A DNA stretch of 64,000 nt from Prorocentrum cordatum (lineage: Eukaryota): NCBI GenBank assembly GCA_963575745.1, contig CAUYUJ010000192.1, positions 186,001 through 250,000 of the forward strand. The letters are read 5' to 3'. The first letter of the stretch is position 1, and each line of letters begins with the position of its first letter. Shown in pieces: positions 20,886-64,000 of the stretch. Below the pieces are notes generated by a model. It ran no database searches, had not been told where the DNA came from, and saw only the letters and a program-made list of their open reading frames with translations. A program made the position numbers and the translations under genes.

Positions 20886-21074
20886 CCGAAGCACAAACTT
20901 GTGGCGCTCCGCGCGGACCTCTTGGATCCGCGCCGCTCCATCCAAGACATCCGCGCGGAGCGTTGTTCCTCCTCTGAGGATCTCCCCGGGGGGCGCGGGT
21001 CCCGAGGGACACGGGCCCCGTGGTTTCTGGCCGTTCTCGGGCTCCCGGGGGCCCTTTCCTCGGGCCCCGGGGCT

Positions 21075-36294: not shown

Positions 36295-36539
36295 GATGCA
36301 GTACTATGGGAATCGGCAGCTGGCTCCTCGACAGTGGCCTGCAGTACTGGTGAGCGACGTGGACGTCCACGTGTGGGTGCTCGCGCAGCGAAGCCGCGCC
36401 TCTGTGCGCCTCCCTCTTCCCCCTCCTTTTCCTCGTCCGCCTCTTCCTCCTCCTCCTCCTCCAGCTCGTCGTGCGTGGAGCCGCCTCTGGTGCTCCCCGG
36501 TCTGCGCACTAAGATTTTGAATGCGTGGAGAGTTCTTTT

Positions 36540-39365
36540 TTCTCTGACTGAGTCGCTCGGGGTGGCTTCTTGGAATTCACAAGCGTTGCTAGGCTCGGTT
36601 CACGCCAATCATCAGCGTCAGTGCCGCAAGTACTTATGTTTTCGAAACCTCGTCGAGAAATATATGATCGTATTTACGCAGGAGACACGTGGGACGTTTG
36701 ATGATCTGGAGACTCTTCGGCGTGACTTCCCCTCTCATCATCATATCAGTAGTTTCTGCGGCACCCCGAAAACTGGAGTTTTCGTCATTTCCATTTCGAA
36801 AAAGCCCATTCGCAAGTTCTCGGCCGCTCGTGTGGTTCCCGTCGCCCCTGGGAGGGTCCTGGTTCTTCGTCTCACTGGTCCTGGTGGTCAGTTTGCGCTT
36901 GGCAATGTGCAATTAGACCCTGCCTTATCGTCTGGCGGAGCATTTCGTGTTTTACAACAGCTCAGGAAGGTGGTTCCTGCTCCTGGACAGGCGCTCGCTT
37001 GCATCGGTGGCGACTGGAACATCCTTGAGCTCGACGAGTTTAGGCAGGCTGTGGACGGCAGCATCACCATTCCTCCTGATGACAGCATCACCCTCCGCAG
37101 GTTACCCAGCCTCTTTGGTGAACTCGCCGAGGTACCCCAAGAAGAACCCACTCACAGCACGTCTATTGGTGATGTTGTCCTTTCTGCATGTTGTCTCGAC
37201 CGCATTTATTGGTCAGCGCCGACAGCCGAGATGCTCGACTGGCACGCTCGCTCCAATGTCATTGGGCTTGCTCACGACAGACACGGGTGTTCGGACCATG
37301 TTCCTGTTTTCGTCCAGGTCGCTCCTGGGGCGGGCCCTCCGTCTCTGCCGAGATGGCTTTCTTCTCACCCTGGCTTCCCTGAGCTGGTTGAGAGTGTCTT
37401 GAGTGAGTGCGAGCTAAGTGACGACCCGTTCGATCGCCTTCAGGAATGCAAGGCGGCCATGTTCGCTGCGCGGGACTCCTTGGCCAGCCAGCTCTACCGT
37501 CTGGGGCCGAGTGACGGGCGGCAAGAGATTGCCGTCTGCCTCAGGTTTATGCGTGCTGCACGTGCTCATAAACGTGCGCATCTACATGCTTGCCTTCATG
37601 CTCCCCCTTTTTCTTAGCAGCTATTTCGACTTTCACAACATGTTCTACACTGACTATGAAGGATTTCATGAATACCTCAGGGCCCCCAATGCTGACATGA
37701 TATCTGACATGATGATGAACGATTGCACTTCCCCTGCTGGTCATATTGATGCTGCCAAGCAAGCTAGGATGCAAGCCCTCCTGCGCTCTTGGTCGGTGAA
37801 AAGGCGCAAGCTCGCCACTTTTGCGGTTGGAGACCCGCTAGACTCTGCGCCGCCGTCGATTGAGCAGTCTGCTAAGAATTTAGCCGTGCACTGGGGTGAA
37901 GTACACCGTGCACCTCCTCATCCTTCTTCTGTCGGTCCTCATGTTCTTGCTGATTTGGGCCGTGAATTTCAACATATTTCACCTGGCATCTCCTGGGAAC
38001 TTGAAGAATTTGAGTTTCGGTCCGTTATTCTGAGTAGGCAAGACTCTGCCACAGGTCCCGACGGTATCCCGTACAGTGGTTGGAAAAACGATGGACCCAT
38101 GGTTCATCTGTGTCTGTATCAGGCTTATGTTGCCCTTCTCCGTGGTCATGCACCCCCTCCTGGCATCAATCATGGTTTACTCGCTATCCTACCGGAGGTT
38201 GACGTTGCTGATGGTGAGGCCAAATCTATCTTGGAGCCCAAGCAGACCCGCACTCTCACGCTCAGCAACACGGACAATAAGCTGATCTCATCTGCACTGG
38301 CCACATTCGCTCTTTCAAGATTTCTATGGTCCAGAACATTCGCGCTCATAACGTTTTGGCTCAACCAGTGTTATTACGTGTGGGACAATTTTATTATGTC
38401 AATGAACGGGTTACCACGACAGAACATACAGCTTTACAGAGGCTGACCGCCTCTCCCAGACACGCCATTTCCACGTCACAACTGAAGAATATTGATCCGC
38501 TTGGCTTCGGCACGGTGCCACGTGCTATCACTTTGACAATCGTTCTGCTTTATTTCGTTCCGCCCTGCGTAGCAAGGTCTTCGATGACATCTCTACCCGA
38601 TTCCATCGGATCGAGCAGTATGATGTTGATGTCCTTTTGCTTCCCCGAATTCCTCAGTGGCTTCGTCAATCTGCCGCGTGCACTTGGCTTGGGAACTATA
38701 AGAGGCTGGTCGCCATTGCCCCTCACCTAGCCGAAGATGGCGTGCACGAGGTTCAGAAGAAAGTTGTCAGGCTTCTGAGATCTCAACGCGAGGCCCCTTC
38801 CATTGCTCACCTTCTCGGCCCGCGGGTCCGATACTTCTGGCCCGAGGCCCCGTGGGAGATTGTTGACGCTGCTTTCAGGTACACCCATTTCCTGGTCAAG
38901 CGTGCTGGCCCATTCGCGGCCGTTTCGTATACCAAGACTATCTGCAATGCCTGGCCAACTACACGAAGGTTCCGTCAAGGGACCCAGATCTGTCGATTTG
39001 GCTGCCAGGCCCTATTCGGAGATGCTGTTGATCACTACCTCCACTGTCCTGCTGCTCTGAGCGCGCTTCCTTTAGTTTTGCCGAATCTGCCTCCTGATTA
39101 TGCCTCTCGAGCCAGGCATGAGCATGTATTTTGTTTCGGAGGCCCCCAGGCTAGTCAGAATCTCTTATCGACTCTCCTTGTGCATGATATTCTGTTAGCA
39201 TCATACAACACTTTGCGCGCGCAGGACAGTTTCGGTCCTGTGTGTCTTCCTGCTCTCTTCCGCGCGCGCGCGCGGGTGCTGGCCCGCCGCCGCGCGGGTA
39301 TTCGGGCTCTGCTACAGCGAGCTGGCCCAGCGGGCCCGCCCGCCGCTGCCGATGATGAAGACTGA
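36540..39365 (+). pseudogene. LINE ORF2: APE endonuclease + start of RT, RT catalytic core deleted, post-RT region and zf-RVT retained
   Basis: APE motifs ASWNSQ, TQETRG, GGDWN, LDRIY, SDHVPV. RT start SATGPDGIPY...RTLTLSNTDNKLISSAL jumps at ~38300 to post-RT NIRAHNVLA...ALQRLTASPRH. C-terminal ICNAWPTTRRF...CRFGC...HYLHCP. Confidence 0.88.
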
Positions 39366-39964: not shown

Positions 39965-40227
39965 GTTCCTCTTCCTACTCCTGCTCCTGCTCCTCCTCCT
40001 CCTCCTCCTCCTCCTCCTCCTCCTGTTCCTCACCCCTCTGCTCATGCTCGTTCTCAGTGTTCCTCCTCCTCATCCTCCCTCCCCTCCTCATCCTCCTCCT
40101 CCGCCTCATCCTGCTCTCCCGCCTCCCCCCCGTCATCATCGTCGTGATCCTCGTCCTCATCCTCCGTGTTTTTTTTTTTTTTTTTTTGGTCCTCTTCCTC
40201 CTCCTCCTCCTCCCCTCTCTCCTCCTC

Positions 40228-40260
<33 letters not shown>

Positions 40261-40308
40261 TCCTCCCCCTCGTCCTCCTCCTCCTCCTCTTCCTCCTCCT
40301 CCTCCTAG
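39965..40308. repeat. (CCT)n tract with an internal T-run
   Basis: Directly visible; T-run at ~40169-40187. Confidence 0.92.
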
Positions 40309-40309
40309 G

Positions 40310-43300
40310 CTCCGTCCCAGCGCTGCCCCCCCCCTTCTCGCGGAGTCTCGTGCGAGGAGCGCGGGCCGCGATGGGGGCTGCCGCACCCGCAGGGGCATGG
40401 GGGCTGCCAGAGTGCCGCCCCCCGCGCGGAGGGGCAGGCGGGCGCCCCCTGTGCTCTGGCTGCAGGCGCTGCTGCTGCTGGGAGGGGTGCGCCCAGGCGA
40501 GGGACGCTTCACGTTCCTCCCAGTGTGGAACCCACAGAACCTGCTGTCTCCCGCCCGCCTGGACGAGGTGTCGCGGGCACTGGCTGGCGTGGGAACTGTT
40601 GGCCCCCCAGGCGCGTGCGTGCGCCAGTGGTGGAACGAGCCTCACCACAAGGCGACGTCGGTGGCCCACCACGTGGTGCACTTCGGGTGGCAGCGCTCCA
40701 GGCTTGTCAACAAGAGCTGCGGATGCGCGCTGGTGCTGGCCAAGAAGTACTTCGGGGTGAACGATATTCGACGACTGGTCACCCCGCCCGTGGGCCTTCG
40801 TGGACGAGGCGGACTGGCCTACATTGCCTCGGGACCGCTGCTCCTCGCCGCGCTCGTGCTTTACTCCCCCCCGCGGCCCGCGGCCAAGGGGGAAGCGCCC
40901 ATCTGGCGCGACGCTTGCCGTGCACTGGTGGCTTGGGCGCGGTGCGAGCTTTTGCGCGTGCCTCAGCGGTGCCCCCCTGTGCTGCTCATGGACCTGAACT
41001 CGGGCCTGACCCAGCACTTCGACGAGGATCCCGTGGTCGGCCAGTTTGGTGCAGCAACTGAGAGCTACGCTGGCAAGCTGGTCCATGAGTGGCTGGCGGG
41101 GGCACGTATGCAGGCGATCAACACCACGCAGCGGGTTGGCAACACTTACTTCGGCATGGGTAGAGCGCCTTCCCAGATCGACTACATTCGCGTGCCCCAG
41201 AGTGCTGGAGTGTTAGTGGAATGGGCGAAGGCGTGGCACCGCGCGGCGGAGGCCGCGCGAGCGTCTCCCTCGATCCTCGATCACGTCCCCGTGGTTGCCA
41301 AGATTCGGATTGTGCCGCCCATGAACCAGCTGCCGCTGCGAGAGCGGTGGGGCCGCCCGCGCTTGTCAGGAGCAGTCTTGTCGGGGAATGGACGAGAGCA
41401 GTTCTTGACCGATCTTCGCGAGGCGTTCCTGGAGATAGGCCCGTCGCTCGACGTGCTGGAGACGAGGGGGGCGACTACTGGCCACGCCGCGCTTGTCATG
41501 GGCACCATCCGCAAGATCGGGCTGGCGCGCTTTCCCAGGACACGGCGCGCCCAATGTACGAGAAGAAGTTGGACGAGAAGAAGTGGCAGCTGCTCCGTGA
41601 GAGGCGCGCCATCCTGGAGGAGGTGAAGGCGCAGGAGTTCGAGGCCATGCAGCGCTGCTCTTCTCCAGCGACCTGGCCGTCGGCTGCGGGCCGCCTTACT
41701 GGCGGCCCTTCCTCTTCCCCACCTTGCGCTGGATCTGTCGAACCACTCGTATCAGAACGCAACGCGCGGAGCAGAGGCTCAGGTGCCCCCCCCCCGTCGC
41801 GGTGCCGAAGAGCCAGACCTGCCGCGCGAGAGGGTCGCCGAGTTGTGGACGCTCGGCAGTGCGATCAGGAGCTACACGAAGGCACTTCAACACTGGCGAC
41901 GCCGCAGAGCTCATGAGCGCCAGAAGTTCACAGAGGACGAACTCCGACAAGCATGGCGAGGCCGTGACATGGCCCAAGTTCCTCGGTTTGCCTGCTCGCT
42001 GGCGCGCACGGGCATTGGCGTGAAGAACCGCAACTACAGAGCACGCGCCTCGTGCAACCCGACGTGCGACGAGTGGTCGACCTTCCTCGCGCAGGACCCG
42101 CTCCTGGGCGGCTTGGCAGCTGCTCGCACGACCATTCCTCTCTGCCACAACTTGAAGCCCGACAGGCTCACGGACTTGGGCAACGCACCGGACTACGCCA
42201 TCCCTGATACGGTGCACATGTCTGAGGGGGGCCTCCGTGGTGGCCAGTCGGACTTCACGATGACAACCAAGGCCCTTCGCCGCGCGAAGATTGGCAAGTT
42301 TGCGCCGTCCTGGTCAGCTCCCTCGGAGATTCCTCCTCCTCCTCATCGTGGACCCAGGATGGCTCAGCAGCCCGACTCTGTATGCCCGCCTGCCGTGGGG
42401 AGTGGGAGCCCGACGACCGCTGGTGATGGAAGAAGAACCTCGAGCGCCTGATCCCTATGCGCGCCTGCAGCTCCGCCACCTGGAGGCATTGGGAGAAGGA
42501 AGACATCGCTTGTACCGCCTGGTACTACATGTACGGCGTATTGGACTTCTACCCGTGCAGGCGTCTCTTTCGTATGGATTTGCCCCAGATAAGCGAAATG
42601 GGAAGACGGGAGCGGCAGGCAGACGGCTGGTGCACGTCATGTGCCCTTTCTGGCGAGCTGTGATGAGGGGGGGAATTCTGCGTGGGAGCACCTTCCGACC
42701 GCCAGAGTGGGCTTTCGCGGCTCGGGGCAGGCGAAGGGAGCACTTGATGATGGCGACGAGGATCGTGGCGTGGAAGGGGCACCACTCAGGACAGCACATG
42801 CTCCACAAGAGCTACGACGCCACGAACGCGTTCGGGCGCGGCCGCAAGGAGGACCTAGAGCGTTCCGTCAGGGACCGCTTGGAGGAGGATGAGGAGATCA
42901 AGGACCAGGACCTGAATTACGTGACGGCGATCTCCCGTCAGCGACGCATGGCGCTCACCGTCGTCATCCCAGCTGCAGACGGCGAGGTGGCCCTGAGGAG
43001 CGGATCAGGAGGGTTCATGGGGGACACATCGGAGCCAGAGATATTCATGAGTAACTACCACATCGCAGTGACGAAGTGGGCCGAAGTGGAGACGGCTCGC
43101 TCTAACGGTGCGATGCTCATCAGGATGCAGAACTTGCCCGAGGTCGACGCTAGCCTGGGATGTTTTATGGACGACATCTTCAAGACCCAGCTTCTGTCGG
43201 AGCCCCAGTCCGCGGCGGAGGTGACCCGCCTCTCGCTGCGTAGCGACCAGGGGCTGGACCAGGCTCTCCTGGAGAGGGCCTACGGCCAGAACAGGGCCAA

Positions 43301-45894
43301 GCAGGACGTAGTGCCTGCTTTTCCTTCGAGGCAGCTGGTACGTCGTACGATTACGGAGCTCAACCGCAGCGGCTGCCGCAGCAGCTACGAGCTGAAGCAC
43401 CTGGGCGCCTGGTTCAACGCGGTGAACAGCAACAGTAACGAGCTCAAGGCACGGCTGGCTGCGATTACGAAAGGCTGGATGATGGTGCAGGGGTTCTGGT
43501 ACTCAGCGTCGCCATTACGAGTCAAGCGCTTGATGTTCATATCCCTGGTGAGCGGGGCGGCCCTCTCGGGCACGGTGGCTTTTTGCTGGACGGCTGCGGA
43601 GACCAGGCAGCTGTGTGGTGCATTGGCTTGCAAGCTACGCTCCATGATGGGAGGCACGGCTAAGGCGGGACCATCGCACATCACGACGCTCACCACACGT
43701 GAGGTTTATAGGCATTGGAATCGTGTGCCCTTTGCACTGGAAGCGACAGTTCAAAGGCTGAAGGCATGGCAGGCGATTGCGAGAGCGCCTCGGAACCATG
43801 CCCACTTGCTGGTCATCTTTTACGGCGAGATGCAGTGGGAGGCCACCAGCGCTTACCGCTGCCCACCGACGCTGCTTGAGGACGGCCGCTTCAACGACAC
43901 GACGCTGATCCACCCTTGGGCGCGTCAGCTCCGGCAGGACTTGGAGGTGATGTGCAGCACACCTGAAGCGGAGTCATTCGCGGAGGTGTGGGGGTTCGGC
44001 TCCATGCTGGACCTGCTGTGGGACGAGGAGGTGAACTACCTCTTCATCTCGTTTGATCCGCGGTGCCTGCGCAGCGCCTTTGCTGCAGTGCAGTGGGCAC
44101 CGCCACCTTGCCTGGCAGACACTGTGCCAGCCGCCCAGGACGATTAGCAGACCTGGGAAAAAGGAGAAGCGGACGTCTTTGTTTGTACGATCAGAGCCAA
44201 TCCAGATGACCCGACTTGTGGACAGAGTTTTCGCACGCGTGCGGCGCTTGTAGCACATGTATGTCAGTCTCGACAACCAGGGCATGGGGGACAGAGTTTA
44301 TTCAATATCCTAACGCCTAGCAATGCATGCATCAACTGCAACACGGTCTTTCAGAGCAGGGGGGAGGCGGTGAGGCACTTGGCACGATCATGGCACGCTG
44401 GGAGGTGTATCAGACACAATACGGCGTACCCGTACATGCACCACCTGCCTACCACGCACGTGTGCGCGCTGTGCCAGTCCTTGTTCATGACCTACGAGAA
44501 CCTCCGTAGCCACTTGTGCTCACACCTGCCGCCGACGCAGGAGGGCAGATCCATATCAGTCGTCACGCCGAGACCTGTACCGTCCGGACCAAGACCGAGG
44601 GCGAAGAGGCCCGCAGCTCCTGCCACAGGACCGCGCCAGAGAGGCAGTGAGATTCGCACAGTCGAGCGCCTGTTCGTCAGCAGCAACACCCTTCTATCCC
44701 AAGGAGGTGGAGAAGCCAGGGAGGTGGCGCCCACACAAGGGGGGCTCCTTGGCCCAGTCGCCGACTGGTGGGCAAGCGTCCAACGGCGGAGACGAGAGTC
44801 AGCAACGCAAGGGAGAGGGAGATCGAGCCGAGGGAGGAGCACGACTCCAACGTGGCGGAGGCGTGGTCAAGGCCATCCAGCAGGAGTCGAAGGACCTCTC
44901 AGACCACGCGGCGAACCTCCGCATGCAGATAGGCCAGTACAAGGAGGACGCCAAGAAGGCGAGCGGCTCCGACGAGGGAGCCGAGAAGGAGGCGGCGCTG
45001 AAGGCCGAGGATACTCAGAAGGAGCTGCACACGCTGGGGCCCCCTGCCCCAGCTCTCCCAGCGGCGCTCGTCGAAAGCCTGGAGGCCGAGGAGGTGGGGG
45101 CGGTCAACCGCAGGGCGCTGGAGGGGATGAAGCACGAGCTCGTCGAGGCCCCGCCCGTGGACGTCCGCCTTGGCAGGCTGGAGAGCTGCAAGGACGAGTA
45201 CATGATCAAGATCGTGCTGGCTCCCAACGACAAGTCCAAGGAGGGGGTGATCACAGCCTGGCTGCACGCGATGGGAGCCCAGGTGACCAGCGGCATGGCC
45301 CCCTCGGACTACATGGAGGACGAGGTCAACGTGTGGACCGACGCGTTGAAGGCGGCCTGAGCCCCGCACGTGAGCCTTTCGGCAGCTTCGCCGCCCTGTG
45401 CCCAGACGTGGAGGGGGTCGTGTCACTGTCGTCCGAGTCTGGGGAGGAGGAGGGATGTATGTAGAGTCTTGCCCCCCCTACTGCCCCCGCGGCATCGCAG
45501 CTCTCGCGGTGCTCTGACGGACTATCGCGGGGGCAGTGGGGGAGACGTGGACGGCTTTCCTTTTAGACGCCGACGGGGAGTCGGCAATCTCCGAAGCCAC
45601 TGGCCGTATTGGCGGGCGAGTTTCTCTGGACCGATGTGCACGCACTGCCTCGGAGCCATCGAGCTTCGGGACGCGCAGCCGTGCGCACCTGGCATAGTAG
45701 CAGCACCAGCACGGTGCGGACGGCGGACATGTGAATTCTTCTAGCAGTTTTACCCCGTGACGGGTTGCTCAGCTCGCGTGCAGCGTGTTGTCAGTCTTCA
45801 GGTGCACGAGTGCTGGGGCGCATATGTGTTAGATGTTTATTGCGAGCATTGGAGTTTCGTGATCTTGTCCAGCAGCCGCGAGCAAGCAAGCAAG
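40310..45894 (+). mobile_element. Decayed non-LTR retrotransposon (RTE-like): APE + RT + three C2H2-like fingers + 3' ORF + (AGCA)n tail
   Basis: APE: VWNPQ, MDLNS, SQIDYI, LDHVPV. RT: SYDATNAF, GGFMGD, CFMDD, NRAKQ, LKHLG. A single TAG at 44145-44147 separates the RT from in-frame fingers CTIR..TCGQSF...LVAH, CINCNTVF...VRH, CALCQSLF...LRSHLCSH. Frameshifts near 41545, 41780 and 42330. Tail agcaagcaagcaag at 45881-45894. Confidence 0.88.
44647..45360 (+). CDS. Unknown helical protein encoded 3' of the RT/zinc-finger ORF within the LINE (N-terminus probably frameshifted)
   Basis: Protein-like composition with many GC-ending codons from ~44860: VVKAIQQESKDL...LGPPAPALPAALVESL...VRLGRLESCKDEYMIKIVL...GMAPSDYMEDEVNVWTDALKAA*. 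Confidence 0.55.
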   Translation: MRFAQSSACSSAATPFYPKEVEKPGRWRPHKGGSLAQSPTGGQASNGGDESQQRKGEGDRAEGGARLQRGGGVVKAIQQESKDLSDHAANLRMQIGQYKEDAKKASGSDEGAEKEAALKAEDTQKELHTLGPPAPALPAALVESLEAEEVGAVNRRALEGMKHELVEAPPVDVRLGRLESCKDEYMIKIVLAPNDKSKEGVITAWLHAMGAQVTSGMAPSDYMEDEVNVWTDALKAA

Positions 45895-46690
45895 CTCCTC
45901 CTCCTCCTCCTCCTCCTCCTCCTCCTCCGCCTCCTCCTCCTCCTCCTCCTCCTCCTCCTCCTCCTCCTCCTCCTCTGCCTCCTCCTCATCCACCTCCTTC
46001 CTCCCTCCTCTCCTCCGCCTCCTCCTCCTCCTCCTCCGCTCCGCCCTCCTACGCTCCCCCTCCTCCTCCTCTCTCCTCCTCCTCTTCCTCCTCCTCCTCC
46101 TCCTCCTCCCTCCTCCTCTCCTCCTCCTCTCCCCCTCCTCCTCCTCCTCCTCCTCCTCCTCCTCCTCCTCCTCCCTCCTCCCCCTCCTCCTCCCCCTCCT
46201 CCCCCTCCCCCTCCCTCCTCCTCCTCCTCCTCCTCTCCTCCCTCCTCCTCCTCCTCCTCCTCCTCCTCCTCCTCCTCCTCCTCCTCCTCCTCCTCCTCCT
46301 CCTCCTCCTCCTCCTCCTCTCCTCCTCCTCCCTCTCCTCCCCTCCTCTCCGCCTCCTCCTCCTCTCCTCCACCCCCTCCTTCTCTGCCTCCTCCCCCTCC
46401 TCTCCTCCTCCTCCTCCTCCTCCTCCTCCTCCTCCTCCTCCTCCTCCTCCTCCTCCTCCTCCTTCCTCCTCTCCTCCTCCCCCTCCTCCTCCTCTGCCTC
46501 CTCCTCCTTCCTTCCTCCTCCTCCTCTCCTCCCCTCCTCCTCCTCCTCCTCCTATTCCTCTCCTCCTCCTCCTCCCTCCTCCTCCTCCCTCCTCCTCTCC
46601 TCTCCCTCCTCCTCCTATTCCTCCTACTCCTCCTCCTCCTCCTCCTCCTCCTCCTCCTCCTCCTCCTCCTCCTCTTCCTCCCCCTCCTCC
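45895..46690. repeat. ~0.8-kb (CCT)n microsatellite
   Basis: Directly visible. Confidence 0.97.
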
Positions 46691-51100: not shown

Positions 51101-52099
51101 GGGACGCACTGACCTGGGTCAATGCAAACCCAGGTTAGTCAGGCCCTGCAGGATCCTGCAAGATCCTGCAGGATCCTGGCCCGCCCGACAATAGGTGGCG
51201 GCGCGCACAAGAGGACATAGGGAGAGGGGGGAAGGCCTCTTGGAAGGACGCCGCTTCCGGGAAGGCGCTGGCCGTACGTCTGCAGACGAGGCCCGCACTC
51301 TCTGAGAAGCAGGGGTGCTTCTAGGAAGCCCCCCCCTTTCCCCCACACCCCCCTTCGGCTACATACGCAAGAGTGACCCAGGGTAAGAGTGACCTTTGGT
51401 GCGCGGCTTTTTTGGGGGGCCGCGGGGGGACCGAACCTGGGCGCGCAAGCGGCTGCCACTGTCTCGTTCTCAGCCATCCGGGGACCCATCCGTGCCCGCA
51501 CCAAAAAGGTCACTCCTGCGAGAGGTCACCCTTATACGTCTCGTCGACCCCTTTCTGAGAGCGCGCCCGACTCTTCCCCCAGGGAGACGCGCGGGAGGCT
51601 CCGGGAGACCTTGCCATCGCCGGCCCTGCTACAGTCGGGGCGCTGACCTAAGGAACCCTAAACAAGGAACGAGGCCCCTGTTTCCCTTACCTTAAAACTT
51701 CGATTCCCCATGGAAAACCTAAGGAAAACCCGAGGCAAACTGTAAAACAATCAAGGAACACCGAGGCCCTCCCCAACGAACAGGGTTCCTTAATCAGCGC
51801 CCCGACTGTACGCACGCAGGATCGCGCCCTCCACACCCGCAGCCCGCCTTGCTGCACGAGCACCCGCCCGACCGGGCGGTCCCCCTTCTGTACAGGGGCC
51901 CCAGAACACACAAATAAAAAAACACACACACACACAAATAAAAAGAATCCCCATATTTTCTCATATTTTCGCATCTTTTCCTGGGGATCGACGGTTCATT
52001 GTGTCTGTGTGTTTTTTCCCTCCTGATTTTTGGGGAGGCCACGCGACGGCGCGACGCCTCCCTGCCAGCACGCTCGCGCACCTCGAACGGGGGGCTCAA

Positions 52100-54585: not shown

Positions 54586-54667
54586 TCAGGACACGTCCTC
54601 AAAGATGTCGCCAAACATGCTCGGATTCATTATGTACGTGGAGCTGTACAGGTCGTTGATCCATCTC
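54586..54667 (-). CDS. Last exon of TSP1/vWA gene ((G)RWINDLYSSTYIMNPSMFGDIFEDVS*)
   Basis: Acceptor cccccAG|G at 54669-54668; phase 2 matches the upstream GA donor; TGA at 54588-54586. Confidence 0.7.
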
Positions 54668-54774
54668 CTGGGGGTAACCAAAGGCACCGACACCGACACT
54701 CCCTGGACCTCTCCACGGATGCGCTCTGACAATGATCCTGAGGTGCACGGTTTCCCCCGGGGCCGTAGGCGACC

Positions 54775-55185
54775 CGAGGAGGAAGAGGAGGAGGAGGTGG
54801 TGGAGGAGGAGGAGGAGGAGGAGGAGGAGGAGGAGGAGGAGAGGAGGAGGAGGAGGGGAGGGGAGGGAGGGGGAGGAAGAGGGGAGGAGGAGATGAGGAG
54901 AGGAGGAGGGAGGAGGAGGAGGAGGAGGCCAGGAGGAGGAGGCAACGAGATGGCCCAGGAGGCCCCCTCTGGCCTCGGCCCGTAGGTCTTAGGCACCATG
55001 CCAGAGGAGGAGGAGGAGGAGGAGGAGGAGGAGGAGGAGGAGGGAGGACGAGGAGGAGGAAAGGAGGAGGAGGAGGAGGAGAGGAGGAGGAGGAGGAGGA
55101 GGAGGAGGAGGGAGAAGGAGAGGGAGGAGGAGGAGGAGGAGGAGGAGGAGGAGGAGGAGGAGGGAGGAGGAGGCGGAGGAGGACG
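54775..55185. repeat. (GAG)n microsatellite (intronic)
   Basis: Directly visible. Confidence 0.95.
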
Positions 55186-55759
55186 GGCCGCCTAAGCCCT
55201 TCGGAGAAACCCTCCATCCTGAGGTAGATCCGACCTGTGGAGGCGCATGCCCGCGGAGACAGGCCCCCCAAAAGGGGAACGGGGGCCAGGCGGTTCGGCT
55301 CGAGGGTGCGCACAGGCAGCTCCCCGAGGTGGCCTCGGGCACGCCTCTCGAATCGTCTGGGACGGTCCAAGCACCCCCGAACCCTTTGGGCGCGGAGCGC
55401 CGGGTGTATTGAGACCGCCCAGGACCACCTGGGGGGCCCGTGGGCCCGCTGGGGATACCGCGGGGGGCTGCCCGCGCGCAGCCTCACGCCCCTGCCAACA
55501 GGGATGGTCATGTTTTCTGCACCTCTTCCAAGGTCCATGCTGGTCAATTGTCTTCCATCGTGAATGCATGTTTGACGGCCGCGCGGCTCGAAACGGACCC
55601 CAGACCTCGAAAACTATAAAAAAACACTGATCCTCGAGTTCCCTCCTCCCTGGTATCGGCATATTTCCCCATAACCGCATAATGGCATTTTTGTTGTTAC
55701 TCCGACCGTGTCGACTCCTCACGCAGAGTCACACTCAGGGTCACTACTTAGGTTATGCT

Positions 55760-57078
55760 AGGTGTTGATGAGAAGAATGATGATGGTGGTGATGGTGATG
55801 GTGGTACTGGTCGTGGTAATGATGATGCTGCTGATGATGACGATGATGATGATGGTGATGATGATGGTGATGATGATGCTGGTGGGTGATGCCACTCTTG
55901 GTAGATGAGGACGATGATTATGTTGATGATGCTGATGAAGGTGACGATGATGATAATGCTGCTGATGATGATGGTCAAACTTATGATAGTGATAATGACG
56001 ATAAGTATGATGGTGATGCTGATGGTGATGGCTGTGAAGATGATGACGACGAGGGCAATACTGGTAATAATGATGGTGATGCTTATGATGATGCTGATTC
56101 AGATGATGACGGCGAAGATGCTGATGCTGATGATGAAGATGCTGATAATGCTGATTACCAGGATGCTGATGATGATGTTGATGCTGCTAGTGATGGCGTT
56201 CGTCATGGTGATGATGCTGATGCTTATGATGATGATCGGAGGTTGGGGGGTGAGATCGCAGTGTAACGGAGTCCCCCCACTCAGAAATCGAGTTTCGAGT
56301 TCGTGCTCGTGCCGTGCGTGCGGGCGAGGCGAAGCTGCGTGGGCCAGCGAGGAATTCATTCTGCTATCGCTAGGGGTCCGGCAACACAAATGGTTCCCCT
56401 CCCCGGTGTTGTCAAGCGGTGGCCCGCATTGTCCCGTCGGTTGCCCGCCGGTTGCTCATCACGGTTGCTCATCATGGTTGCTCATCATTGTCCCGCCAGT
56501 TGCTCATCATGGTTCTCATCATTGTCCCGCCGGTTGCTCATCATGGTTGCTCATCATTGTCCTGCCGGTTGCTCATGATGGTTGCTCATCATGGTTGCTC
56601 ATGAGTTGTCGTCATGAGCCACCCCCCTCCCCCCACCCCCCCACAACCTCCTTATCACCCGCAGGGTGGTCGTATAGGTAAATATTATACTCATGATGGT
56701 AGTCGTGTGGATGATGATGGCAACAACGATGATAATAATCATGATGATGCTGCTGATGATGATGATCATGACGATTGTGGTAATGATGTTGATCATGATG
56801 ACGCAAGTCATGATGATGAGGATGACGATGATAATGATAGTAGCGATGTTGGTGGATGATGATGATAGTGAGGATGGTGATGGTGGATGGGTATGATGAT
56901 GATGCTGATGAGTATGATGGTGAGGAGGATGATGATGAGGATGATGATGACATGGTGATGGGGATTGTGATGATATGATGATGGTGATGATCATGATGAT
57001 GATAAAGATGGTGATGATGATGATGATGGTGCTGCTGCTGCTGCTGCTGATGATGATGATGAAGATGATGATGATGAC
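55760..57078. repeat. Degenerate (GAT)n microsatellite, split by the element at 56236-56678
   Basis: gat/ggt/gct triplets on both sides of the insertion. Confidence 0.92.
56236..56678 (+). mobile_element. Short copy of the 12334-13903 element family carrying a different tandem repeat (ggttgctcatcat)n
   Basis: A|TCGGAGGTTGGGGGG start; subterminal ccacaacctcc; perfect hairpin caccc-gca-gggtg (56656-56668); gtcgtatag end. Confidence 0.75.
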
Positions 57079-57084
57079 GGGGAA

Positions 57085-59020
57085 AAGTTTGAGGATGCCT
57101 CGGGCGAAGCGCTGGCTACAACTCACCCAAGGGGGGGGGAAGCCAGGGGGCATCTCACTCCTCCGGTCGCGCCTGGATTGCGGGGATGCCTCGAGCGGCT
57201 TGCCCATGTGCATGCTCAACACCCTCCGCTGTCGGAGCAGATTCTGCGGATGTCTCGGGCGAGGCGCCGGTGTTTGCACCCCAGGGGAGGGCAAATATTG
57301 CGAGGATGCCTCGAAGGGTGTGCGTGTTTTGCTGGCCATGCTCGTCTGCAGCCAAAGCAGGTTCTCAGGAAATGTCGGGCGACGCGCTGGTTTCGACACG
57401 CCCAAGGGAGAGCCGCCAGGGGGTATCTCACTCCTCCGTTCGCGCACAGATGGCGGAGATGTCTCGAGCGGTTTGCCTGTTTGCATGCTCAATGTCCTCT
57501 GCTTTCGGAGCATATGCTGAGGAGGTCTCGGGCGAGGCGCTGGCTTTCACACCCCAGGGGGTGCCCAGATTGCGTGGATGTCTCGAGCGGTGTGCGAGCG
57601 GTTTGCCTGTTTCCTGATCCAGGATTCTCAGCTTTCGAGGCAAATGTGGAGGACGTCTGGGGCGAGGCGGGGGGACGCATGCGGACCCTGCCGCGGGGGC
57701 CATCGGTGGAGCTCCCTATGGGGCCACGATTATCGTGAGGGGCGTGCCGAAATGGGCGGTAATGATCGACCCCAGGGGGGCACAGATTGCGAGGATATCT
57801 CGAGCGGTTTGCCTGTTTTGGTGGTCGGACTCGTTAGTCTCGGGCGAGGCGCTGGCCCAGGAGGCGCCAGGAGGCAGCAGGAGGCCCCAGGAGGCCCCAG
57901 AGAGCTCCAGGAGCCTGGAGGCCCCAGGAGGCATCAGGAGAGGAGGCCCGGCTCCAATCCTACATTAACGTATGTTCCTATAGATTGGGCTTCACGAATC
58001 CTTGGTGATTTTCGCATGTACCAACACACATATCTATATATATATATATACTGCCCCTGTCTTGTGGCCCCGACCTTCCATGTTTTCCAAATGTTCCTGT
58101 AGGTTGGGCCTCCGTTGCCAGGACAAAAAAGTGCCCACAGCCATGGCAGGTAGGCGATGCAACATGGTAACAACCACAACTGCGAAGTGCCCCTGCTTCG
58201 GACCCCTCCCCCCCAGAATTCAAAGTTGAAGTGTCCACATTCTGTCACTGGCCTTTGGCCTACCGCCAAAACCCGTCAACTTCAAATTTAGGGGAAGGGT
58301 GGTATACATGTTGGTCCGACGTTCTTTAATGACTCATTTTTTCTACTTCTCCCAGCGCACGAGATTCGTTTTGTCTTCGTTTCCCAAAGCAAAATGACAC
58401 CACAGATGTGGAAAAAGACGCGTCGCAATGTCTTGGCGAGTCACGTGTGGACACTTTCAGCCCACCCACCGTCCCCTGGGGCCCGAATCAGTTGTGTGTT
58501 TGACATGTGTTCTGATCGCCTGCTCCTCTCCTGTGGCTCCAACCCTGAGTGCTGTGCTAATGCCCCTACACTTTGGGCCTCGCCTTGGGGCGCGCATCCC
58601 CCCCAGGAGGCCCCAGGGAGGCCCCAGGAGGCCCCAGGAGGCCCCAGGAGGCCCCAGGAGGCTCCTGGATGCCACAAGAGGTTCCGGGGGGCACCAGGAA
58701 GCCTCAGGACGCCCCAGGAGGCCCCAGGAGGCACCCGGAGGCCCCAGGAGGCCCCAAGAGGTTCAAGGAGGCCCCAGGAGGCCGCAGGAGTGGCTCCAAT
58801 CCTAGGCGTTACGCTTGTTCCTGTAATTAGTGCTCCAGTCCAGGAGTGGCCGCAGAGTGCGAGGATGCCTAAGGCGGTTTGCCAGTTTTCGTGGCCAGAT
58901 TCGTCTGCGTTCAGAGCAGAGTCGGAGGATCTCTCGGGTGAGGCGCTGGCTTCGACACCGCGCTCATCTTGCGAGGATGTCTCGGGCGGTTCGCCTGGCT
59001 CGGTGGCCAGGCTCGTCTGC
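57085..59020. repeat. Diverged tandem repeats (gaggatg(c/t)ctcgagcggtttgcc units; 10-bp ccaggaggcc arrays at ~57857-57945 and 58600-58790)
   Basis: Motifs recur at least eight times. Confidence 0.75.
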
Positions 59021-59341
59021 GGGACGGGTGCACTCCCAGCCGGTCAATGCCCACGCAGCCGGTCAATGCCCACGCCCGTGTGTGTGTGTGTGTTCGAAGC
59101 CTCTCGCGCCTGGACGCTCACGACGGGACGGTCCATGCAAATAGGTGCACACATGGGGAGCTCCACGCATGCTGGTCGTCTGACCTGTAGTGTCAGAGGC
59201 ACTGTCTGTGGCCCCGGTGTTCTACACTGCTGGGCCTGCTCATAGAGCGACTGTAACTTATGTGCGGTCAGGGAGCCCCTGACCTCTCTCACTTCATGGG
59301 GAGCCCCACGCCAGGAACCGTTTGTTTCTCCTCGGACGCTC

Positions 59342-59487
59342 CCGCTGCCGCAGGTCACGTTCGCGCGCTCGGACATGGCCGCGGCCCAGACGTCCGCCGT
59401 GACCTCGAAGGTGCTCGCGTAGCACGAGGGGCCGCCGCGGCTGCCCGTGTAGTACGAGAAGGCCAGGAGGCCCTTCTCCTTCACGGC
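59342..59487 (-). CDS. Exon of TSP1/vWA gene (AVKEKGLLAFSYYTG...NVTCGSG)
   Basis: Acceptor ctgccAG|GCC; donor CGG|GAgcgt (GA type); 146 nt, phase 0 to phase 2, consistent with neighbours. Confidence 0.8.
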
Positions 59488-60258
59488 CTGGCAGTGTTCT
59501 GCCCTCGGCTTCTCGGGTCGGGCGAAAGGGGGGGATACCGAAGGGGGGGGTTGAGAATCAGCTCACGTAGCTGATTTTCCCGGCGCCTCCCGGCGCCGGA
59601 TGGAGCTATGTATCGAGGAATGGGCCCCTCGGTGAGGCCGAAACCAGCTGCATGCAGCAAATTTCGTAACCCCCCCTTTCCCAATCCCCCCCTTTCGTCC
59701 GGCCCGAGCTTCGGTCGGGCGTGTCCGCCTACGGGCGGATCTTGGACGAAAAAATCAAAAAAATACCCCCAAATTGAGAAAACAGCCGAACACGGTCGAA
59801 CAATCGTCCCCAGAGCATTTTCTAGTGCTTTCGAAGATTCCTCCTCGGATATCCACCTCGCCGGGTCGATTCGGTGCTCCGGGCTCGGTGTCTGTGCCTG
59901 CGTGGCCAGCTCGGGAGAGCGTATACGCACGGATCCCTGGGCCCAGGATGGGGTCGGGCCAGGATCGGCGAGGCAGCCAGTGGACGCCCCCCTCCCCCGG
60001 CCCTCGAAGGATCGAGAGGGGGAGGGGCCTGCAAATCGTCGACCTTCGGAGGGATCGAGGGGGGAATGGGATCGAGGGGGGAATGGGATCGAGCTGGGAA
60101 GGGATCGAGGGGGGGCATCTGTATTTTCTCCGAAGGGATCGGGGGGGAGGGATCGAGTTTCGGGACGCTTCTGGTGAGTTCTGAGGCTCTGGTCCGGGGG
60201 CCTCCGGGGACATCCAGGCTTCGGGACCCAGGGAGGCACGAGCACTTGCGAGCATGGC

Positions 60259-60548
60259 CTCCATGCAGGCGTCGGGGCTGTCGACGCGGCCCACAAACGT
60301 GTCGACGCCGCACTCGGCACTGGGGTACCCCTCCTCGTGGATGAGCAGGTAGCCCTCCTGCTCCTCTTCCTCCTCCCTCTGCGATGGCGAGAAGGCCCGA
60401 GGGCAGAACTTCACTAGCAGCCTCTGCGCGAACTCCGGCTCGTTGTTTATCAGCGTGTCCAGGCCCGGGATGCGCTCGTAGTTGGTCTCCCACGGCTGGC
60501 TCGCCCATCCCCGGAGTACCTTCAGTTGGTCGGTCGTGTGATCGGCAA
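60259..60548 (-). CDS. Exon of TSP1/vWA gene ((I)ADHTTDQLKVLRGWASQPWETNYE...DACME)
   Basis: Continues the vWA domain; donor GAG|GCcatg (GC type). 5' boundary defined by precise removal of element 60549-61013. Confidence 0.82.
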
Positions 60549-61013
60549 TCCGCCACTTTCCTTTCGACTTGTTTGGGTGGAATGAAGTGCCTGCCAGCTG
60601 CCTGGTAGGTTCTCGGTGATTTCCCAGGGGCGACGTCACGAAAGTCCACACCGCACTAGAACATCGTAGCGATGCTTTCCCAAATGGCCCAAGCCCTTGT
60701 TCTGCCGAGCCCGTCAGGATAAATCTGAAGAATCAAAGTGCATACATGAAGGGGCCCTGAGACACACATATATACACACAACTGAAATTATCCTCTATAT
60801 TTTCCATATTTTCTGGATTTTTGTCTTCCCCCTCACTTCCCATAGTTTCCTATATTTTCGGGGGAATCGAAGATTAATTGTGTCTGTGTGTTTCTTTTCC
60901 TCCTGACAAGCCCTTGCTCTGCCGAGCCCGTCAGGGATAAATCTGAAGGATCAAAGTGCACACACTTCAGTGCTGCGCTGGCAGGGTGGCGGAGGCTGCC
61001 GCAGGCAGGGCGA
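60549..61013 (+). mobile_element. 465-bp A|T-inserted element with asymmetric inverted repeat and GCA-triloop hairpin, interrupting the CDS
   Basis: Starts tccgccac; inverse gtggcgga at 60986-60993; hairpin ctgcc-gca-ggcag at 60996-61008; ends ggcga|t. Removal gives ATG GCC CCC ATT GCC GAT (MAPIAD). Confidence 0.85.
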
Positions 61014-61308
61014 TGGGGGCCATGAAGATCTGGATCCCCTTGTCCTTCATGGCCGTGGCCTTCATGCCCGTGCGGTACGCGTTCGTCCACTTGCCGTCCG
61101 AGATCACCATGACGGCGCTCTGCGCATCCTCCCGGCCGTCCGCAAACATGTTGTCGGCCGCGGTCAGCGCCTGCATCATGTTCGTGAACCCGCGCTGCCA
61201 CTGCAGCCCTTCGACCGCTGTGCTGACGGAGGCAAGGTCGCTCGTGATCTGGACGACTTCGAGAGCAGGTGAGACCGTCCCGTTGTCGAAGTACTCGCCG
61301 TTACCGAA
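61014..61308 (-). CDS. Exon of TSP1/vWA gene (FGNGEYF...GFTNMMQAL...VMVISDGK...IQIFMAP)
   Basis: vWA core with MIDAS Thr (FTN) and Asp (ISDG); 295 nt; bounded on both sides by the A|T elements. Confidence 0.88.
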
Positions 61309-62120
61309 TCCGCCACCGTGCCCTCGAGGCACGAGGTCGAATGCTCTCGGGTCCCTTGCTCGGCCCCCTTGGAGCCTCCCTGCCCGGACTCGACACTGCC
61401 ACTCGGCGTGACCCCTGGGACTGCTGGCGTGCCGGGGCGCGCTGTCGCACGACTTGCTCGGGCCCAAGAGGGCCCTCAGAAGGACGAAGAGGGCCGCAAC
61501 AGCCCCCCCCAAGACGATCCTCAAGGGCGTCGAATCGCCGAGCGATGGGTTCGACACGCCCAAGATGGCTCCGAGACGGCCCAAGAAGCCGCCCAGATGC
61601 CCCAAGAGAGCTCCAAGAGCTCTCCCAAGAGGGCCCCAGGAGCCCACAACTGTAATCCCCTTAGGGTGGTGACAGATTCTAGCTTCTTGGCCGCCCCAAG
61701 ACGGCCCAAGAGGACCTCAAGCTGGCCCCAGAGGGCGTATGGCCCCAAGACGGCCCAAGAGGGCCCCACACGGGAGGACTCGAATCGAAAAGCCGAGCTT
61801 TCCTGCCCACCGGGCCCCCCGCAGGCCCCAAGACCCCCTCCAAGAGACCCCCAAGAGTCTCCAAGAGGTACCTGCGAGGCCCAAAAGAAGCCTACAAGAG
61901 GCCTGAAAGAGTCCACGAGAGGCCCCAAACTGGCCACCTAGAGGCGTCAAAACTACCTCGAAGAGGCCCCCGAGGGGCCTCCCCCGAGATCCCAGCGAAC
62001 ATCCTAGAGACACGCATTTCAAGAAGCTCCCGAATGCCACTCCAAGAAATCCCGAGAAGCATCCGAGTCCCCTGGCCCACAACACGGGCACAGAGGTGGG
62101 GTGGGCCGAAGGCCATCAGA
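61309..62120 (+). mobile_element. 812-bp A|T-inserted element with asymmetric inverted repeat and GAA-triloop hairpin, interrupting the CDS
   Basis: Starts tccgccaccgtgccc; imperfect inverse gggcacagaggtggg at 62086-62100 (11/15); hairpin ggcc-gaa-ggcc at 62104-62114; ends atcaga|t. Removal gives GGC CTG GTA CTA TTC GGT AAC (GLVLFGN). Confidence 0.85.
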
Positions 62121-63884
62121 TAGTACCAGGCCGATGCGCATATCTTCTTGGCCATAGTAAACATTCTGGTACCTGCTGGTGAGGTTTAGGGCAAAATTCT
62201 TGACGATGTCGAAGCCCGTCTGTCTCAGAGAGCCGCTGCCATCGACTGCAATGACAAGGTCCTGCTTCGCGATGCAGATCTCATCGCCGACGCAATCCTG
62301 GGTGTTGCATTCCCTCATCTGCAAGCGGTCGGGGTGCTTGGGCGAGGGGCACCTTCCGTTCGCGCGGATGGGGATGTCCACCTTGCGCACGCGCTCCTGG
62401 ATCCCGCCGCCGCAAGCCATCGAGCAAGGCTCCCAGGCTGTCCACGGCAGGAGCGAACAATCGCGATCGCACGAACCAGTGTTGCACGGCTGCTCCTCGA
62501 GCGTCGCGTCGCACTCCGTGCCACCGTTCTTGGGCTTCGTCAGGATGGAACGGGTCTTGCCCTGCGTGCCACCTCCGCATTCCTTCGAGCACTGTGAGAA
62601 ACCAGACCATGCGGACATCACGCAGTTCACTGGGCAATGGAACTGGTTACACTTCATGCCTGCGGTCCCGTTCTTCCGCTCATAGAAAAGCGGCGGGCAA
62701 GCCATGCCGTAACTGTTCGGTGATACGATGATCTGCCTCGTGAGGTGCTTCATCCCGCCGCATGCTTGGACATCAACGCCACCGACATCAACTGGGCAAC
62801 TGTCATCGCAATCCACGGGATGCGAATTGCCTCTCCCATCGGTGGTGCATGGTCCCGCGGACCAGTCCGTCAGGTCGCAGTCCTTGATGCTATGCGTGGG
62901 CGAGACCTTGCTGTACCTCATGAGTGCGTTGCGCACTGTCCGAGTGCCGCAAATGTTCGTGTAGAGGATCTCGGTCATGCGCTTCTTGCAGTCGCCCATT
63001 TTGGAGATATAAGCCTTATCGATGTCGCGGTGTTGCTGCTGTTTCTCGCGGGTTGCAGCGGTGATAGAATTGATCTCGGAGATGGCCTCTCCCAGCATCT
63101 CCGTGAATTTCATCTTGTTCGACCTCAGAGTTGCGATCTGCTCGTTCATGTTCTCCTTCTCGCCCTCGTAAGCGTCGCGGTTCTGCTGCATCTCGTACGT
63201 CAGCTCGTCGACGAGGTCCTTGAATTTGCCCCACTCAAGTGCCATGATGTCGTGGAGGAGGCCGCAATTCACCTGGCCGTTGATGCACTTCCTCGAGCCG
63301 CCCGACGGCGTCTTGACCCGATGAGGAGGTGGCGCCTGGCCCAGCTGCAGCAGCGAGGCAGCCTGACCGTCCTTCGTGCCCAGGATCTCGCGCAGGGCAT
63401 TCTGCACGCGCGGCGACCGCCGGATCTTGGCCGCGAGGGCGGTGTTGTTGGTGTCCACTGCGACCCCGTCAGGCGTGTCGCAGACGTCGAACTGAGCGAG
63501 GGAGTACGTGTCGTCCCCGTAAGCGTTGGGGCACTTCGACAGCTGGAGGATGGCGGTGAACACGTCCTGGTCGTCCTCGCGGAGGTTCAACTCGTACTGA
63601 TTCTTCTCACGGGTAGACTGGAAGCTTCGCTTCAGGTTGTCGAGGGCTGTCTCAAGATCATCAATTCGAGTTTTCATGTCCGCGATGCCGCCTTCAGCCT
63701 GGGCCTTCATGCGCTCCTTGTCAGCCTGATCCGAGCCGAGGTGCTCCAGATCAGTGACCACCTGGCTGAAGACCATGCGGTTGCTCTCCTCAAACTCCTT
63801 GCAGTCGACCTCGACGTTGTCAAGCTGCAACCAAGCATCGTACATCATGTTGTTCAGATACACGCGGCCTTTCGCCAACGACAC
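62121..63884 (-). CDS. Large exon of a probable secreted/adhesin-like protein: coiled coils + three thrombospondin type-1 repeats + start of vWA domain
   Basis: 588 open codons after acceptor gctcAG|GTG. TSP1 motifs WSGFSQCSKECGGG..R and WTAWEPCSMACGGG..R; vWA MIDAS DLVIAVDGSGS. Upstream exons lie outside the window. Confidence 0.92.
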
Positions 63885-64000
63885 CTGAGCGACGACGCAA
63901 AAAGAGGGTCTTACAAACGACTGCACAGCTACCATGCGCTCTGGCCTACGCACGCCGCCAGCACGGCACACTGCGAGAGAACGATAACGACCACGCGCGG

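Follow-up and report, generated by a model that had tools for sequence, protein, structure and literature searches.

Two insertions with Helitron-like ends and non-canonical borders are absent from the mature RNA of an adhesion-type gene in the dinoflagellate Prorocentrum cordatum

Where introns come from, and how a fresh insertion becomes spliceable, are open questions, and the locus described here raises them directly: can a gene whose coding sequence is broken twice by transposon-like sequence, with none of the borders of an ordinary dinoflagellate intron, still give an intact message? The gene lies on the minus strand at the right end of a 64,000-nucleotide (nt) stretch of the Prorocentrum cordatum genome (GenBank assembly GCA_963575745.1, contig CAUYUJ010000192.1, positions 186,001 to 250,000 of the forward strand; hereafter the window, with position 1 its first letter). 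Its product is of a secreted, adhesion type, with a coiled-coil region, thrombospondin type-1 (TSP1) repeats and a von Willebrand A (VWA) domain, and its coding sequence is interrupted by two elements, E1 and E2 (Table 1). Assembled contigs from public sequencing runs show mature RNA without each element exactly, with one A and one T left behind, alongside the removal of an ordinary intron of the same gene. We consider it probable that this expressed gene holds two related insertions of transposon type, E1 and E2, which are non-autonomous and act as introns with non-canonical borders.

Five coding exons were located by tblastn of relatives against the window. Deleting exactly the coordinates of E1 and E2 opens a minus-strand frame through RIGLVL|FGNG and FMAPI|ADH, and joining the five exons gives a frame that opens at the 63884/63886 acceptor, closes with the stop codon at 54586-54588 and runs over 858 codons, with neither an internal stop nor a frameshift. 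An earlier note on this stretch, made from the letters alone, had placed both elements at A|T and claimed that their exact removal restores the frame; its coordinates, open frame and 858 codons were all reproduced. The joined protein aligns without a gap at both junctions in 20 of 20 homologs (40-100% identical), and E2 splits the VWA domain in such a way that its exact removal mends it, because the Pfam VWA profile breaks off on one adjoining exon and resumes on the other. The window holds only the 3' part of the gene, because RNA contigs with loose ends at 63886 continue into an upstream exon beyond the window and because the nearest relative, the protein P0001, has approximately 100 additional N-terminal residues. 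An apparent ATG at 63935 is intronic, the contigs splicing at the AG|G acceptor near 63884-63886 to the out-of-window exon. At the other end of the gene, a loose end of the RNA-derived contigs at 59339 reads on into the last exon.

Table 1 Window coordinates of the gene, the two elements and the RNA joints
Feature	Position	Strand	Details and basis
Coding exon, first within the window	62121..63886	-	Coiled coil, TSP1 repeats, VWA start (Pfam VWA profile positions 1-43)
Acceptor of the first in-window exon	63884-63886	-	AG then G
E2	61309..62120	- as intron	812 nt; phase 0, CTA Leu / TTC Phe
E2 left terminus TCCGCCACCGTGCCC..., family terminal motif	61309..61332	+	Terminal comparison
E2 degenerate, gapped subterminal inverted copy	62086..62103	+	Ends 17 nt from element end
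E2 mini-hairpin GGCC-GAA-GGCC	62104..62114	+	Then ATCAGA and element end
Coding exon between E2 and E1	61014..61308	-	VWA profile positions 59-136
E1	60549..61013	- as intron	465 nt; phase 1, within ATT Ile codon
E1 left terminus TCCGCCAC	60549..60556	+	Read from sequence
E1 subterminal inverted copy of family terminal motif	60970..60993	+	24 nt
E1 mini-hairpin CTGCC-GCA-GGCAG	60996..61008	+	Then GGCGA and element end
Coding exon following E1	60259..60548	-	tblastn, RNA contigs, joined-protein alignment
Ordinary dinoflagellate intron, GC..AG then G, 771 nt	59488..60258	-	Carries an element like a MITE (a transposable element of the miniature inverted-repeat kind)
Coding exon	59342..59487	-	tblastn, sequence reading, joined-protein alignment
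Ordinary dinoflagellate intron, GA..AG then G, 4674 nt	54668..59341	-	tblastn, sequence reading; contig loose end at 59339
Last coding exon including stop codon	54586..54667	-	Stop at 54586-54588
RNA joint, GC..AG intron	59484>60256		Skips 771 nt; 5 nt ambiguity; 4/4 runs
RNA joint, E1	60547>61013		Skips 465 nt; 2 nt ambiguity; 3/4 runs
RNA joint, E2	61307>62120		Skips 812 nt; 2 nt ambiguity; 4/4 runs

Is either element present in the mature message? We compared window positions 59200-64000 with assembled contigs from four public runs (X1, X6, X8 and X15), each from a different study; X15 is recorded as a polyA metatranscriptome. Twenty public runs in all match part of 60200-63900, none of them over more than 0.61 of the sampled words, which is approximately the exon share. 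The same contigs that skip the neighbouring GC..AG intron also skip E1 and E2. The E2 joint is carried by a 481-nt contig with 0 differences from the window, and the run that has no contig over E1, X15, gives thin cover of the adjoining exon and is uninformative either way. Within E2, positions 61454-62097 had zero depth in all four runs and are bridged by the joints, and within E1 only a dispersed repeat of 55 nt is covered, by contigs whose ends are loose on either side; parts that are uncovered and unbridged (for example, 59844-60165 in the GC..AG intron) were counted as no evidence. At the contig level, E1 and E2 therefore share with standard introns the absence from RNA with an exact join. 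The earlier note had supposed that the insertions are tolerated, possibly through precise removal, and had proposed reading transcripts across the junctions: its predicted joins were present in contigs of four studies, base-exact, and retention of E2 was not seen in them.

The borders that these joints allow are not those of a standard dinoflagellate intron. In gene sense, the 2-nt ambiguity permits AT..GG, TC..GA or C[G/T]..AT only, as the earlier note had argued in calling the borders non-spliceosomal; the intron would start with AT, TC or CG/CT rather than with GT, GC or GA, and would end in GG, GA or AT before an exon base A or T rather than in AG before an exon G. Of the two introns neighbouring them in this gene, one begins with GC and the other with GA. 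More conventional readings of the joints were also considered. The earlier note had pointed to GC..AG sites close by (62113 to 61324-61323 and 61020 to 60557-60556) as a possible ordinary route, a suggestion that failed: none of the three joints uses them, and the residues that they would affect are kept in 20 of 20 homologs. The same two observations dispose of a GT..AG pair that would delete VLFGNGE. A U12-type AT-AC intron does not fit at the 3' end, no bulge-helix-bulge or Ire1-type motif could be drawn from the sequence, and cmscan of 59300-62400 at E<=1 found no match within either element to group I or group II introns or to any other Rfam family.

The main rival to our reading is that the interrupted copy is dead or polymorphic, E1 and E2 being recent insertions that inactivate it, with the RNA supplied by an allele that is not interrupted, by a recent duplicate or retrocopy, or by strains in which the insertions are missing. 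In dinoflagellates, genes are duplicated to a high degree, and the searches gave at least five P. cordatum paralogs, together with many transcript relatives. Among named proteins, the best relatives are five from P. cordatum, whose identity to the upstream-exon query is 55-83%; named models of P. cordatum reach at most 83% overall and at most 90% on the middle exon, and unnamed transcript-derived proteins reach 89% overall in the protein search. No protein model identical to the locus appeared in two protein searches (best overall match, 89%), and the middle-exon search returned only P0001 at 100% identity, residues 693-792 of which are identical to the product of the exon between E2 and E1. 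P0001 is 98-100% identical to the locus in the 3' exons and 88.7% identical in the upstream exon, and the contigs break between 62386 and 62471 and carry C>G at 62403, so that the 3' part is common to two or more expressed forms that are nearly identical; this suggests expressed paralogs that share their 3' part through gene conversion or recombination, and the contigs cannot tie the junction to a single locus. In X1, the variant with G at 62403 accounts for approximately half of the depth.

Against a silent copy, however, contigs matching the locus's own, diverged upstream exon (62472-63786, identical or with one difference) are present in four of four runs; this sequence type is transcribed, because such contigs exist for an exon in which even the nearest relative is so clearly divergent. 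No contig with unique E2 sequence was found in these runs, only the exact joints. The interrupted copy is also clean over its 858 codons, and a killed copy would need two independent insertions of the same rare type and orientation 295 nt apart, would have to be silent and would, apart from these, have to agree fully with the expressed copy across more than 2.4 kb of exons. A retrocopy without E1 and E2 would itself imply prior splicing, unless it were older than the insertions. The mean depth of the bridging contigs is of the order of that of the own-exon contigs in every run, a weak hint given that contig depth is a poor measure. On these grounds we regard a killed or polymorphic copy as unlikely.

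What, then, are the two elements? On the plus strand, both start 5'-TCCGCCAC, end in ...GA and are flanked by A and T; read as a transposon-like element, E1 is 5'-TC...GA-3' on that strand, antisense to the gene. The last 8 nt of the E1 subterminal repeat (GTGGCGGA, 60986-60993) repeat the left end perfectly in inverted form and stop exactly 20 nt before the 3' end of the element. In E2, the corresponding copy is degenerate (GGGCAC-AGA-GGTGGGG versus TCCGCCACC-GTGCCC, a gapped 13/15 match), and in the 20-nt register just 5 of 8 positions match the inverted terminus. The right ends read GCGA in E1 and CAGA in E2, with hairpin stems that stop 5 and 6 nt before the terminus, respectively. A C-GNA-G triloop hairpin with a stem of at least 4 lies wholly within the last 20 nt of both elements. 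Such hairpins occur in 0.15-0.18% of 20-nt segments, with 27 in the whole window on both strands, including those of E1 and E2, and none of the other 25 has a ...GA|T end or a TCCGCC partner.

The similarity between the two elements is confined to their ends. Their left 8 nt are identical, and the opening 24 nt of E2 agree with E1 60970-60993, taken as reverse complement, at 19 of 24 positions; over positions 9-24 of this terminal motif, 11 of 16 match, a level that 123 among the window's 127968 16-mers attain. Over the window as a whole, TCCGCCAC is present 9 times against 3.9 expected. A scan of the window for the bare geometry (A|TC, an 8-nt inverted copy, a 10-30-nt tail and GA|T) recovered E1 among 74 matches, many of them in simple repeats, against a mean of 24 per shuffle (30 mononucleotide shuffles, both strands, not dinucleotide-preserving). 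Because the loose geometry is common, what gives the shared ends weight is their coincidence with the exact borders that restore the frame, together with a hairpin of a rare type and terminal similarity over an extended stretch. The interiors are unrelated by sequence comparison and blastn, that of E2 consisting of degenerate 10-21-nt GCCCAAGA-like repeats. On balance, the ends of E1 and E2 appear to be homologous or under one common constraint. The earlier note's description of these ends largely survived: the terminal hairpin is there in both and is of a rare type in the window, the interiors are dissimilar and the terminal similarity is longer than had been claimed (approximately 24 nt); the TC start, A|T site, inverted copy and hairpin that it had called Helitron-like were upheld as well. 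Its claim of one terminal geometry with an inverted copy exactly 20 nt from the end holds for E1, whereas the E2 copy is gapped and 17 nt from the end.

Side observations on the two interiors can be added here. The repeats of E2 are similar to CCCAAGAGG-type arrays at 628-1054. E1 is composite, with a 58-nt direct repeat (60690-60746 and 60907-60964, 93% identical) around an AT-rich core, and a piece of the core (60852-60906, 55 nt), at either side of which contigs of X1 and X6 have loose ends, occurs in other transcripts and is 81% similar to 51958-52026.

That such ends arose by error in the assembly is hardly credible. E1 and E2 would then be mis-assembled sequence, and mis-joins would not give borders that are base-exact and frame-restoring and that carry matched, structured termini.

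The design of the ends recalls rolling-circle transposons. With classical Helitrons, E1 and E2 share the TC start and insertion at A|T, where a 1-2-nt duplication is indistinguishable from none (PMC5148889). With Helitron2 or Helentron elements they share an asymmetric inverted repeat, located approximately 20-40 nt inside the right end, and a hairpin (Chellapan et al. 2016, PMC5148889); E1 fits this plan with a perfect 8 nt located 20 nt inside, and E2 with a gapped copy 17 nt inside. Short terminal hairpins with GAA-type loops, and copies that share ends but have unrelated interiors, are likewise known among Helitrons (PMC5148889). As to the target, Helitron2 and Helentron elements are reported to insert at T-rich or TT sites, against A|T for E1 and E2 when they are read with a TC start (PMC5148889); shifting the border by one base would make the site T|T in gene sense, but the TC start would be lost. 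Transposon superfamilies that have terminal inverted repeats and known target duplications were rejected, the flanks showing no TA, TTAA, TWA or longer duplication.

Footprint-free excision is reported for some Helitrons and for the sequences that ciliates eliminate, and one could imagine that E1 and E2 leave at the DNA level, the RNA coming from a repaired gene. The elements are removed exactly, and an ambiguity of 2 nt agrees with clean excision between A and T. However, both elements would have to be excised in nearly all transcribing genomes, yet both are in the assembly; we know of no soma/germline genome split in dinoflagellates, and no transcript contig containing E1 or E2 was found in the four runs. 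Helitron-like ends would also suit this explanation, in that Helitrons form circular intermediates with joined ends (PMC5148889). We judge excision from DNA highly improbable.

A different challenge comes from reading the shared ends as splice signals rather than as transposon termini: E1 and E2 would belong to a distinct intron class, old or convergent, in which UC plus the mini-hairpin at one end and GUGGCGGA at the other, in gene sense, would be the signals of a pathway independent of GU and AG. The likeness of E1 and E2 is indeed confined exactly to the borders, between unrelated interiors, and blastn, geometry and hairpin scans of the other 62 kb, its non-coding parts included, gave neither a second copy of E1 or E2 nor any further instance of the end pattern. 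Nonconventional introns of Euglena are defined by similar border signals (PMC12501133); like E1 and E2, they are nuclear introns without GT-AG; base pairing of the ends is needed for their removal, and a MITE-like origin is suspected for them. The lineage is unrelated, however, and the Euglena code (5'-N3-CDG ... CH'G-N5-6 before a purine exon) is missing from E1 and E2 in all three registers, with a near-terminal 3-bp motif in Euglena against a set-back helix and mini-hairpin here (PMC12501133). Moreover, a terminal sequence with a subterminal inverted copy, a GNA hairpin on the antisense strand, insertion at A|T and a TC start are together a rolling-circle transposon design (PMC5148889), and the insertion sites are not proto-splice sites. 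The colinearity of all 20 homologs at both sites shows an uninterrupted mature sequence, not the age of the introns. A separate, non-transposon intron class thus seems distinctly unlikely.

Reading E1 and E2 as related transposon-type insertions that behave as introns instead aligns them with introner elements. Those of the dinoflagellate parasite Amoebophrya are, on likeness of features, the closest working analogue. In strains A25 and A120, more than 60% of introns are non-canonical, and 11-30% of these bear inverted repeats of 8-20 nt together with border repeats of 3-5 nt (Farhat et al. 2021, PMC7789003); introner families of A120 have many non-canonical splice sites (Gozashti et al. 2025, supplementary file 8). 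Shared with E1 and E2 are RNA-supported dinoflagellate nuclear introns whose end dinucleotides are not GT/GC/GA..AG, a direct repeat over the borders that makes the cut ambiguous and the look of non-autonomous DNA transposons (PMC7789003). The kind of intron proposed here is therefore not new. There are also differences: the host there is a syndinean parasite and here a free-living core dinoflagellate; the Amoebophrya repeats sit at both tips, whereas in E1 and E2 one arm is set back by 17-20 nt and accompanied by a GNA-loop mini-hairpin; and E1 and E2 measure 465 and 812 nt, against Amoebophrya mean lengths of 120-240 nt (PMC7789003). Because their border repeat is 2 nt and their layout asymmetric, we do not file E1 and E2 as members of the Amoebophrya type. 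Under the inverted-repeat criterion applied by Dougan et al. (2023, PMC10666404), namely 8-20 nt located no more than 30 nt from each intron end, the repeat of E1 is a perfect 8 nt (positions 21-28 in gene sense versus the last 8), and E2 has only its gapped 13/15 match, with an end pairing that is not above shuffles.

Introner elements with terminal inverted repeats, regarded as non-autonomous DNA transposons, have in fact been described from P. cordatum and Polarella glacialis (Dougan et al. 2023, PMC10666404). They were sought among annotated introns only, in gene models built with GT/GC/GA donors and AG acceptors (PMC10666404), and E1 and E2 would be invisible to such a search for that reason. 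In Polarella, 9 of the 10 introner family rows examined, out of 78 occurrences, have gt/gc/ga..ag only, and family fam13, with 843 copies, has a few other sites too (5' NC:3; 3' ac:1, NC:2) (Gozashti et al. 2025). Introners derived from Helitrons are known from fungi (Nemania serpens fam1 and Suillus subalutaceus fam5), where, unlike E1 and E2, they have gt..ag borders in 20 of 20 and 4 of 4 cases, respectively (PMC12130899). The name Prorocentrum is absent from the main text of Gozashti et al. 2025 and from the 12 of its 14 supplementary files that were searched (PMC12130899), and the literature searched, which included few subscription papers, held no report of introns other than GT/GC/GA-AG in this genus.

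How might such insertions be removed? At the DNA level, E1 and E2 would be one family whose ends follow the plan of rolling-circle elements of the Helitron2 type: TCCGCCACC... on the left, its inverted copy set 17-20 nt inside the right end, a C-GNA-G mini-hairpin and a final ...GA, with unrelated interiors as might be expected of elements recognised by their ends only. It is the strand antisense to the gene that bears the stable GNA loops, as would suit a signal read from single-stranded DNA. At the RNA level, in gene sense, the intron would open with a 19-20-nt tail containing the mini-hairpin, followed by one arm of a long-range helix whose partner arm would be the last 8-15 nt of the intron. 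Such a fold would put the foot of the helix at the 3' border and leave the length of a single hairpin between it and the 5' border, and with junctions that form a short palindrome, A|UC...GA|U, it could join the cut sites without GU or AG. Structure-assisted splicing of this sort, independent of GU/AG and as proposed for Amoebophrya introner elements (PMC7789003), seems to us the likeliest mechanism, with the cutting done by the spliceosome or by another nuclease and a ligase. For E1, the end pairing is present in both the minimum free energy structure and the centroid of the full intron and was matched by 6 of 200 shuffles; the whole-intron z values are -1.68 for E1 and -4.65 for E2, the latter driven by internal repeats.

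A bolder proposal, which we hold to be doubtful, is that core dinoflagellates have a second, structure-defined way of removing Helitron-like insertions from pre-mRNA, without GU or AG. The structures by which the DNA is recognised (subterminal repeat and mini-hairpin) would then double as the RNA fold that marks the A|UC...GA|U cuts, and the cutter would perhaps be not the spliceosome but a nuclease and a ligase acting on the junction helix.

Several observations weigh against the reading that we prefer, in which E1 and E2 are related, transposon-type insertions behaving as introns with non-canonical borders. On the RNA side, the evidence consists of contigs and not reads, so that rare forms are dropped and pre-mRNA, lariats and strand are not visible; the library type is on record for one of the four runs only, that of X1, X6 and X8 being unrecorded; an uninterrupted copy with identical exons would yield the same contigs; and the close expressed variant with C>G at 62403 is the sole form in X6, X8 and X15. 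On the side of structure, the E2 end pairing was matched by 50 of 200 shuffles and is missing from the centroid, its repeat being gapped, and the mini-hairpins are not unusually stable (nearest-neighbour z from +0.27 to -1.36 versus shuffles). As for ancestry, the border repeat is shorter than the 3-5 nt of Amoebophrya introner elements (PMC7789003); classical Helitrons end in CTRR with a hairpin 10-12 nt upstream, as opposed to GCGA or CAGA with 5-6 nt here (PMC5148889); and the Helitron and PIF1 Pfam families had no match among the 25 largest open reading frames of the window, which bears on Helitron membership. Mobility is inferred from structure only, because just two copies, both in one gene, were seen. 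Beyond the window, the exact 29-nt right end of E1 had 0 matches in metagenome contigs, and a protein-guided metagenome search with P0001 gave 7 loci, all of them colinear transcripts of approximately 3 kb without insertions.

The surroundings of the gene are poor in other coding sequence. The G+C content of the window is approximately 60%, against 59.7% for the P. cordatum genome (PMC10666404), and a codon-position GC screen with Pfam found no second ordinary host gene in the window; the other 62 kb are mostly repeats and open reading frames like those of long interspersed nuclear elements, with no clear host gene. Two runs of long open reading frames on the plus strand (36295-39365 and 40148-45464) look by eye like non-long-terminal-repeat retrotransposons, with Pfam matches below cut-off (Exo_endo_phos, E = 0.0065; C2H2 fingers, E = 0.001-0.08). 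The MITE-like element in the GC..AG intron occupies 59503-59710, and its 46-nt terminal inverted repeats show 83% complementarity; another copy, at 23703-23911, is 92% identical over 209 nt, and a sub-threshold Rfam match to MIR820 falls on the element at 59514-59706 (39 bits versus a gathering score of 196). The element is present in other transcripts, because X1 contig depth is high over 59503-59710. A dispersed repeat with GATCC..GCGCGGAGCGC and the palindrome TGGCGCGCGGAGCGCGCCA, found on both strands (9986-10113, 15620-15638, 19916-20031 and 20904-20914), is probably another transposon family. Very long trinucleotide arrays (CTC up to 796 nt) and 10-nt arrays lie at 17425-19209 (minus strand), 45895-46690, 54776-55183, 55819-56236, 56728-57077 and 58601-58790; one array gives a 594-codon valine-rich open frame that is surely no gene.

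To our knowledge, non-canonical inverted-repeat introns are documented at scale only in the parasite Amoebophrya. Amoebophrya is hard to grow; Prorocentrum is culturable and bloom-forming. If our reading of E1 and E2 is true, the phenomenon would be older or wider among dinoflagellates than has been thought, Prorocentrum would offer a tractable system for asking whether RNA structure replaces splice-site sequence, and the Helitron-like ends would link rolling-circle transposons to the gain of non-canonical introns. Gene models of large dinoflagellate genomes that allow only GT/GC/GA-AG introns (PMC10666404) would, in that case, mis-model or miss such genes. And were the structure-defined mode of removal also true, rolling-circle transposons could enter exons without killing the gene, and the gene models of dinoflagellates would lack an entire class of introns.

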